Source: Escherichia coli 042 (GTDB taxonomy: Bacteria > Pseudomonadota > Gammaproteobacteria > Enterobacterales > Enterobacteriaceae). Taken from it: DNA of 64,000 bases. The notes beneath the pieces were generated by a model, which worked only from the letters and a program-made list of their open reading frames with translations, made no database searches and was not told where the DNA came from. Both the position numbers and the translations under genes were made by a program. This document shows, piece after piece, positions 58,111-58,670 of this stretch (position 1 is its first letter; each line of letters begins with the position of its first letter). The DNA lies in NCBI RefSeq assembly GCF_000027125.1, contig NC_017626.1. The stretch is one strand, 5' to 3'.

Positions 58111-58670
58111 GTTCCTTTCTCGTCGCTGTAATTACAGCCACTCACGATTTACTCGCTCCTGCTGGCACATGCAGGAGCCTGTTTCAGAGATCGAATATTT
58201 ATAACGTTCTTAACATTATATATTCAACGCCACCTACACTTCTGAGCGATCGGAGCAGGCTAAATTCTGAAAAGCAGGTACAAATTAAAGAATGATGTAT
58301 CAATATCAACAATGAATTACCGCATATCAATGCTTGAAACATAATTAATTATTTAAATTTTTCTATCAGCATCGCAAACCCCGCAATAAAACATCACTCA
58401 ACTGAATATTTACCTTTCCCTGCCCTGGGCCTTTATCCGGTGAAACATTTGACATTGATTGACACCGATCATTAAAATCCGCGCGATCAATTTATTTATT
58501 GGCTACAAACTAAAATTGTTTAACACTTAAAAACATATTCGCACAACCCATTAATACAAAAATTCTCTAACAAATTTATTTGGCGGATATGCCCCACTCT
58601 AATCATTCATAAAAAAAATGATTGTACTGTAATTATCAACGTATCGGGATTATGAAAAGGAATTCATCCT

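Follow-up and report, generated by a model that had tools for sequence, protein, structure and literature searches.

The AT-rich spacer downstream of yibL in Escherichia coli 042 as the probable H-NS-silenced control region of a sadB-type lipoprotein and trimeric autotransporter operon

We conclude that the 560-bp spacer at positions 58111-58670 of a 64,000-nucleotide stretch of Escherichia coli 042 DNA, referred to here as the window, is probably the 5' control region of an operon encoding a sadB-type lipoprotein and an adhesin, with a promoter that is silenced by H-NS. We put the probability of this reading at about 0.82. Both the regulatory region and the operon are already known, and the promoter and upstream footprints that we describe across genera are a useful detail rather than a discovery. 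The significance is mostly one of annotation: likely positions for the promoter, the leader and the yibL terminator are placed for the known UpaG/EhaG/SadA operon. The reading of the locus is also corrected, in that the AT-richness belongs to a long regulatory region.

The spacer is preceded by yibL (57748-58110, plus strand), an upstream core gene for a ribosome-associated protein, which matched the Pfam family DUF2810 at E=6e-32. RefSeq also annotates yibL at this place in E. coli WP8-S18-ESBL-07, a strain with a 100% identical spacer. On the other side, a plus-strand gene at 58671-59354 (the orthologue of c4423, DUF3251 in RefSeq) encodes a 227-aa product that matched PDB 4C47, the sequence of the Salmonella SadB crystal structure, over residues 23-227 with E=1.2e-70. 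The product carries a lipobox, LLAGC, followed by D, and we annotate the gene as encoding a SadB-type inner-membrane lipoprotein. After a gap of 43 nt, an adhesin gene begins at 59398 and runs on the plus strand to position 64000 and beyond the window end; RefSeq annotates it as YadA-like in the identical strain. The RefSeq gene order in WP8-S18-ESBL-07 is mtlA-mtlD-mtlR, yibT (minus strand), yibL, 560 bp, DUF3251, YadA-like and lldP, and no RefSeq feature lay beneath the spacer among the matches listed. The homologous slot is annotated as upaG in CFT073 and as ehaG in O157:H7, the operon being represented by upaG in UPEC, ehaG in EHEC and sadBA in Salmonella. A sequence-only reading of this DNA had spoken simply of lipoprotein and adhesin genes; the SadB match and the upaG/ehaG slot identify these as a sadB-type lipoprotein gene and a positional orthologue of the UpaG/EhaG/SadA trimeric autotransporter genes.

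Lying between yibL and a SadB-family gene that is followed by a YadA-like gene and lldP, the spacer has the position of the 5' regulatory region of the upaG/ehaG/sadBA operon. The sadBA operon has been described as flanked by the mtl and lld operons and as deleted in K-12 (PMC3953254). The assignment also follows from homology to the characterised CFT073 locus, because the two spacers are 93.8% identical over 558-560 nt and share the same -35 hexamer, 18-nt spacing and -10 hexamer. The G+C contents of the upaG and ehaG spacers are similar to that of the 042 spacer (0.357 in CFT073 and 0.334 in O157:H7). Strain 042 nevertheless carries a different allele from either, since its lipoprotein gene is 85% identical to that of CFT073 and its spacer is 53% identical to that of O157:H7.

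The spacer had been described as visibly AT-rich, and this was borne out: its G+C content is 0.355 vs 0.509 for the window, and the three A/T tracts quoted in that description were all found in place. Only 0.6% of 560-bp segments of the window have a G+C content as low as that of the spacer, and the minimum for this segment length, 0.334, starts at position 58191. Composition is uneven within the spacer, with a G+C content of 0.528 in the 72 nt at 58111-58182 and of 0.330 in the other 488 nt. The AT-rich tract extends from 58183 to about 59420 and is the presumed region of H-NS binding and spreading; its G+C content is 33% within the spacer and about 42% across the lipoprotein gene (0.417). 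The 4.6 kb of the adhesin gene inside the window have a G+C content of 0.529.

An extended AT-rich tract over a promoter is the arrangement found at H-NS-type loci, yet other intergenic gaps of the window are comparably AT-rich. The ORF-free gaps range from 24% to 45% G+C. Apart from the spacer, 17 of them have a length of 120 bp or more, and six of these are more AT-rich than the spacer, although none of the six is longer than 225 bp. The window has six gaps that reach 390 bp or more, and of these the spacer has the lowest G+C content. The sequence-only reading had named a G+C content close to the window average as an observation that would speak against it. The spacer is well below that average; almost any intergenic region would pass this comparison, and the comparison fails to discriminate because most intergenic DNA of the window is below the mean. 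We conclude that 35% G+C is not exceptional for the intergenic DNA of this window, and that what is unusual is a length of 560 bp at such a composition.

For comparison we aligned 12 spacers. Six were E. coli alleles, namely the query from strain 042, CFT073, ATCC 11775, the ST131/SE15-type, the O145-type and O157:H7. The other six came from Escherichia sp. E1V33, E. marmotae, E. fergusonii, a Salmonella enterica contig and two Pseudocitrobacter species. All 12 loci had the same organization, with yibL, a spacer that was 489-560 bp long and had 29-36% G+C, and then the lipoprotein and adhesin genes. Most of the spacer sequence has diverged, because outside conserved blocks the spacers were approximately 48-70% identical in most comparisons and differed by indels. 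Conservation at the left edge covered the yibL stop-codon region, and the other conserved blocks were an upstream element, a -35 hexamer, a -10 hexamer and a ribosome-binding site.

An intergenic gap of a length that is unusual in E. coli could also be explained by a decayed gene, left as a pseudogene remnant, or by an unannotated small protein gene, for which a 47-aa ORF on the minus strand would be the candidate. This ORF is the longest in the spacer, but it is already gone in the 94%-identical CFT073 copy, and no ORF of at least 25 aa kept its position or strand across the 12 homologous spacers. The earlier statement that the spacer holds no convincing ORF therefore stands up to the comparison. 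Further, the conserved blocks are of the promoter and ribosome-binding-site type and are not coding-like. We consider a pseudogene or a small protein gene in the spacer to be highly improbable.

The top match of a promoter consensus scan of the spacer was TTGACA-N18-TAAAAT, at 11/12. It places a putative sigma-70 promoter on the plus strand at 58449-58478, with the -35 hexamer TTGACA at 58449-58454, an 18-nt spacing and the -10 hexamer TAAAAT at 58473-58478, and both the hexamers and the spacing are those of sigma-70 promoters. The pattern TTGACA-N17/18-TARMAT has one occurrence in the 64 kb of the window vs 0.03 expected. All 12 spacers had the promoter pattern at the homologous position; its chance probability was about 0.001 per shuffled spacer, and the distance from the -10 hexamer to the ATG was 163-202 nt across the set. 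From the position of the promoter, transcription is predicted to start near 58485, which would give an AT-rich 5' leader of approximately 185 nt (58485-58670, plus strand). The leader showed no significant structure in a single-sequence fold (z=-0.15), and RNAalifold found no consensus structure in it. Close to its end is a Shine-Dalgarno sequence, AAGGA (58657-58661), which is located 9 nt before the ATG and inside the conserved block at 58654-58667.

The sequence-only reading had proposed that the spacer is a promoter region that is likely silenced by H-NS. This proposal is strengthened by the conserved, near-consensus sigma-70 promoter and, by analogy, by the literature on related alleles. 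A promoter that is near consensus and yet is reported to be silent in culture fits H-NS silencing across the AT-rich tract. Both UpaG and EhaG are reportedly increased in hns mutants. A list of H-NS-repressed autotransporters of UPEC in PMC5012682, in a passage that cites Totsika et al. 2012 (Appl Environ Microbiol 78:2179), includes UpaG. In Salmonella, SadA was not detectable in culture and its native conditions of expression were reported as unknown (PMC3953254).

H-NS binding has been mapped by ChAP-seq in K-12, SE11 and SE15 (PMC4720273, S6 Table and Methods). In that study yibL was among 42 genes that were bound by H-NS only where a neighbouring specific segment was present, the signal being given per gene and not by spacer coordinate (PMC4720273). 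The neighbouring segment at yibL was ECSE_3883-3884 in SE11 and ECSF_3436-3438 in SE15, and there was none in K-12 (PMC4720273). We found that the only SE15 genes from yibL to lldP that are absent from K-12 are the DUF3251 and YadA-like genes, which lie behind a 543-bp spacer. A comparison with H-NS binding in related strains, which had been suggested as a check on the silencing proposal, thus turns out in its favor, with signal at yibL in SE11 and SE15 and none in K-12.

Regulation in CFT073 points in the same direction. The gene c4423 was up by log2 5.1 (2^5.1-fold) upon overproduction of TosR (PMC5956150), a PapB-family regulator for which binding to AT-rich DNA and antagonism of H-NS and Lrp are predicted. 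We identified c4423 as C_RS20890, which encodes the lipoprotein and immediately precedes upaG in CFT073. The spacer of 042 itself has 47 TpA steps vs 26 expected, which is suggestive only. The H-NS consensus TCGATAAATT has three weak matches in the spacer, with 2 mismatches each, which puts the spacer at the 96th percentile of 560-bp windows. Two of these three matches, the overlapping decamers GCGATCAATT and AATTTATTTA, coincide with the predicted transcription start (58483-58498) and are likewise suggestive only.

With these results, we propose a model in which the promoter would be intrinsically strong and embedded in AT-rich DNA that extends over about 1.2 kb and into the lipoprotein gene. 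H-NS would nucleate in the AT-rich tract and spread over the promoter and the transcription start. In culture the operon would thereby stay silent, and relief of H-NS would come from an AT-binding antagonist or from some signal. By analogy, the allele of strain 042 would behave like those of CFT073, SE15 and SE11. The arrangement resembles H-NS-silenced adhesin promoters such as those of upaC, upaH, F9 fimbriae, tos and pap, where AT-rich DNA covers the promoter and the early coding region over several hundred bp. Two more properties appear to be shared with these promoters, going by orthologous strains and by the parts of the literature drawn on here, namely silence in culture and de-repression in hns mutants. 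A third is the response of c4423 to TosR, as an AT-binding protein of the PapB family (PMC5956150).

Farther upstream, the spacer carries a conserved element, AGCAGGCTAAATTCTGAAAAGC (58254-58275, plus strand), which we recognized by its conservation across genera. Each of the 12 spacers contained its core, TC[TC]GAAAA, which lay 172-183 bp ahead of the -35 hexamer, an almost constant distance. The element may be an activator site or an anti-silencer site. We inspected it for a second promoter, and the -10-like hexamer there, which reads TAAATT, TAAAAT or CATAAT, had no conserved -35 hexamer at 16-18 nt. We also noted a possible second copy of the element on the minus strand at 58944-58960, which has 3 mismatches and a broken invariant core and is at chance level.

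The leader contains a further recurring feature at 58601-58632 on the plus strand. It consists of an inverted repeat, AATCATT (58601-58607) and AATGATT (58617-58623), together with a 4-codon mini-ORF, ATG ATT GTA CTG TAA (58618-58632). The repeat is kept with a loop of 4-9 nt in most Escherichia alleles and in both Pseudocitrobacter species, and the mini-ORF is kept in Escherichia alleles with varying codons. Both are missing in the O157, E. fergusonii and Salmonella versions. The hairpin that the repeat would form has a folding energy of -3.6 kcal/mol (z=-1.2).

The conservation of these features raises the possibility that a dedicated activator or anti-silencer acts on 58254-58275, perhaps together with leader control through the repeat and the mini-ORF, and that silencing is not the main control. 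H-NS silencing alone does not explain why the upstream element should be conserved in every spacer, nor why it should be one of only four conserved non-coding blocks. The recurrence of the repeat and the mini-ORF across alleles, and the report that the native inducing conditions of sadBA are unknown (PMC3953254), also fit a dedicated regulator. On the other hand, a near-consensus -35 hexamer needs no activator, the leader hairpin is weak, and the repeat and mini-ORF are lost from three versions of the locus. Moreover, the mini-ORF has no Shine-Dalgarno sequence, and the upstream element could be matched to no known transcription-factor motif. When the upstream element and the leader were compared by eye with consensus sequences for CRP, FNR, Fur, IHF, Fis, RcsB, Lrp, sigma-54 and RfaH ops, no match was convincing. 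We regard control mainly by a dedicated regulator as possible but on the whole doubtful, and it would complement the explanation by H-NS more than exclude it. Still more tentatively, the upstream element and the promoter, and in part the leader repeat and mini-ORF, may mark a dedicated regulator or leader mechanism that switches the silent operon on. If so, identifying this regulator would show which signal naturally induces SadA/UpaG/EhaG. In any event, the search for that signal has concrete targets in the promoter and the upstream element, both of which are conserved across genera.

Adhesin genes can also be controlled by phase variation, and two sequence features led us to consider a switch in this spacer. 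The -10 hexamer lies between two GATC sites (58467-58470 and 58485-58488), as might be expected for a Dam-dependent switch like those of pap and agn43. In addition, a 31-nt inverted repeat with 71% identity (58185-58215 and 58690-58720) brackets the AT-rich part, as might be expected for an invertible promoter like fimS. The GATC sites, however, are absent from most other alleles. The second arm of the repeat lies within the coding sequence of the lipoprotein gene, and 71% identity is at chance level in AT-rich DNA. Moreover, the spacer was a single co-linear piece in all full-length matches listed (1246-1302 genomes), and neither conserved GATC sites nor flanking repeats with both orientations were observed. 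Unlike the control regions of pap, fim and agn43, the 042 spacer thus carries no conserved methylation or inversion switch, and we consider phase variation at this promoter to be extremely improbable.

At its left end, the spacer contains a terminator-like hairpin of yibL (58155-58185, plus strand). The arms GCTCCTGC and GCAGGAGC and the loop TGGCACAT occupy 58155-58178 and are followed by CTGTTTC. A fold of 58100-58200 gave -28 kcal/mol with z=-2.72. The hairpin was also the sole structure that RNAalifold detected in an 11-sequence alignment, where 3 of its 5 pairs showed compensatory changes. The first ~75 nt of the spacer are common to Escherichia, and the hairpin closes this conserved core part. 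Its stem of 8 bp is G+C-rich and conserved, and its tail, CUGUUUC, is a poor U-run; a terminator scan reported no terminator here. As modeled by these folds, the G+C-rich hairpin at 58155-58178 is most likely the end of the yibL transcript, with its function as a terminator uncertain because a good U-run is absent.

The sequence-only reading had added that the spacer could hide a small RNA. A long non-coding stretch of conserved length would be a suitable place for an unannotated small RNA on either strand, and the hairpin at the 3' end of yibL could in principle end an RNA derived from the yibL 3'-UTR. We found little to favor this idea in the remainder of the spacer. A search of Rfam at E-values up to 1 returned only a chance match to U4, with 18 bits vs a gathering score of 46. 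RNAalifold reported no structure outside the yibL hairpin across 11 spacers, and neither the plus-strand leader (z=-0.15) nor the minus strand (z=-1.04) gave a significant fold. A terminator scan of both strands was negative, and identity between the conserved blocks was only ~50-70%, with indels. The spacer therefore yielded neither a credible family match nor a conserved structure with its own promoter and terminator, and the suggestion was not sustained. We consider a small RNA gene here to be very unlikely.

The spacer had further been described as horizontally acquired, and the AT-richness could accordingly be explained as that of recently acquired foreign DNA at the edge of a genomic island, with a composition that has not yet drifted to that of the host. 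Several observations are compatible with this explanation. The whole segment is absent in K-12, and the spacer and the lipoprotein gene are both AT-rich. In addition, E. coli alleles of the spacer are as divergent as those between genera: within the species, spacers are 53-69% identical vs approximately 95% for yibL. Exchange between lineages is apparent from the near-identity of the O145 allele and Escherichia sp. E1V33, where the spacer is 96.5% and sadB 98.8% identical and yibL only 93%.

The distribution of the locus, in contrast, argues against a recent arrival. The order of yibL, spacer, sadB and adhesin gene is syntenic in Escherichia, Salmonella and Pseudocitrobacter, and E. fergusonii, E. 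marmotae, Salmonella and Pseudocitrobacter also have the spacer of 489-560 bp at 29-36% G+C. Among 5426 complete E. coli genomes, 1880 have spacers of the window-, ST131- and O145-types and a further 2267 have the O157/B1/Shigella-type, so that all types together account for up to ~76%. Composition does not single out the locus either, given that the part of the adhesin gene inside the window is at 52.9% G+C and that other intergenic gaps are equally AT-rich. We found no integrase, tRNA or flanking repeats at the locus, using the annotation of the identical strain and a repeat search. Thus, neither the mobility signatures nor the patchy, lineage-restricted distribution of a recent genomic island was seen.

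The arrangement in K-12 can be accounted for by loss. The K-12 sequence diverges right after the yibL stop, and in strains with the locus its nt 12-107 after yibL are located downstream of the adhesin stop. The K-12 junction segment has matches of at least 99% identity in approximately 1235 genomes. Judged from this junction, the K-12 state is a clean deletion of the locus, and the K-12 arrangement has likewise been read as a deletion (Grin et al. 2014, PMC3953254). The divergent, mosaic and cross-species alleles indicate that alleles moved by recombination at an old locus. Taken together, these sequence comparisons lead us to conclude that the locus is ancestral, that it was lost in K-12 and that its alleles were exchanged by recombination; it is not a recently acquired island. 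The description as horizontally acquired hence holds for the exchange of alleles between lineages and fails for a recent island, given the syntenic locus, the K-12 deletion and the lack of mobility signatures. We consider recently acquired foreign DNA to be an unlikely source of the AT-richness. An H-NS-silenced control region at an old locus, our preferred reading, would set 042 apart from other H-NS-silenced adhesin genes, since the 042 locus is off any mobile island and is ancestral, syntenic and lost in K-12.

The closest system outside E. coli is sadBA of Salmonella enterica (Grin et al. 2014, PMC3953254), which shares with the 042 locus a SadB homologue and the position between mtl and lld. 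Both the promoter and the upstream element of 042 recur in the Salmonella-type spacer, which outside these footprints is approximately 51% identical to the 042 spacer. It differs in its promoter, which has a 17-nt spacing and the -10 hexamer TAGCAT, and in lacking the AATCATT/AATGATT repeat. The gap between the lipoprotein gene and the adhesin gene is nearly the same in the two systems, with 43 nt in strain 042 vs 44 bp in Salmonella sadBA.

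Comparison of the 560-bp spacer between yibL and the SadB-type lipoprotein gene (window 58111-58670) with its counterparts identified a conserved upstream element, AGCAGGCTAAATTCTGAAAAGC (58254-58275), recognized by conservation among the spacers. The core of the element, TC[TC]GAAAA, was present in all 12 spacers compared, which represent four genera, and it lies at a nearly constant distance of 172-183 bp upstream of the predicted -35 hexamer (TTGACA, 58449-58454, in E. coli 042). When we compared the element by eye to the consensus motifs of known factors, none matched convincingly.

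Downstream of the predicted -10 hexamer (TAAAAT, 58473-58478), a G+C-rich discriminator, CCGCGCG (58479-58485), precedes the predicted transcription start. The discriminator is retained in most Escherichia alleles and in P. vendiensis, whereas O157, E. fergusonii, Salmonella and P. corydidari have an A-rich sequence in its place. Such a discriminator could render the predicted promoter sensitive to ppGpp/DksA or to supercoiling. Further downstream, at 58601-58632, we found an inverted repeat (AATCATT/AATGATT) overlapped by a mini-ORF of four codons, ATG ATT GTA CTG TAA. Most Escherichia alleles retain the mini-ORF's start and stop codons, with O157:H7 and E. fergusonii as the exceptions, and in the O145 allele the stop is TGA in place of TAA. 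The inner codons vary between Escherichia alleles, giving MIVL, MIVP, MNMA, MIVK and MFAV. Both Pseudocitrobacter spacers have the repeat as well, but with a shorter loop.

For the history of the locus, we compared window 58111-59354 with the corresponding CFT073, O145 and Escherichia sp. E1V33 alleles. Relative to CFT073, the spacer is 93.8% identical and the lipoprotein gene only 85.1%; relative to the O145 allele, which has nearly the same sequence as the E1V33 allele, the spacer is 68% identical and the gene 89%. Because the identities of spacer and gene differ by allele, we place recombination breakpoints between the two, and on this comparison the history of the locus is mosaic.

In E. 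coli 24AR0376 (L006 3001-6057), IS1 interrupts the spacer 57 nt into its AT-rich part and is followed by a cluster of fimbrial usher, chaperone and subunit genes that replaces the lipoprotein and adhesin genes. In two further strains the SadB-type lipoprotein gene is a pseudogene beside an intact adhesin gene: an internal stop disrupts it in ATCC 11775, the type strain of E. coli (L003 8559-9242), and a frameshift in strain 377323_2f (L021 1230-1914). Metagenome-assembled genomes labelled Oscillospiraceae and Collinsella include contigs bearing an E. coli-type sadB (86% and 100% identity), and these contigs are probably mis-binned.

AT-richness in the window is not limited to the adhesin locus, because the divergent yibT-yibL intergenic region (57465-57747) is locally even more AT-rich than the spacer, at 22-29% G+C per 100-bp window. 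Two further strongly AT-rich stretches, 46731-47631 and 27541-28311, have 560-bp minima of 0.339 and 0.359 G+C and are comparable to the spacer in composition. Within the adhesin gene, 60760-62000 consists of nearly identical tandem units, each about 210-235 bp long, which reveal themselves by spurious ORFs that recur in a ladder-like pattern on both strands. Such units are typical of the stalk/neck repeats of trimeric autotransporters.
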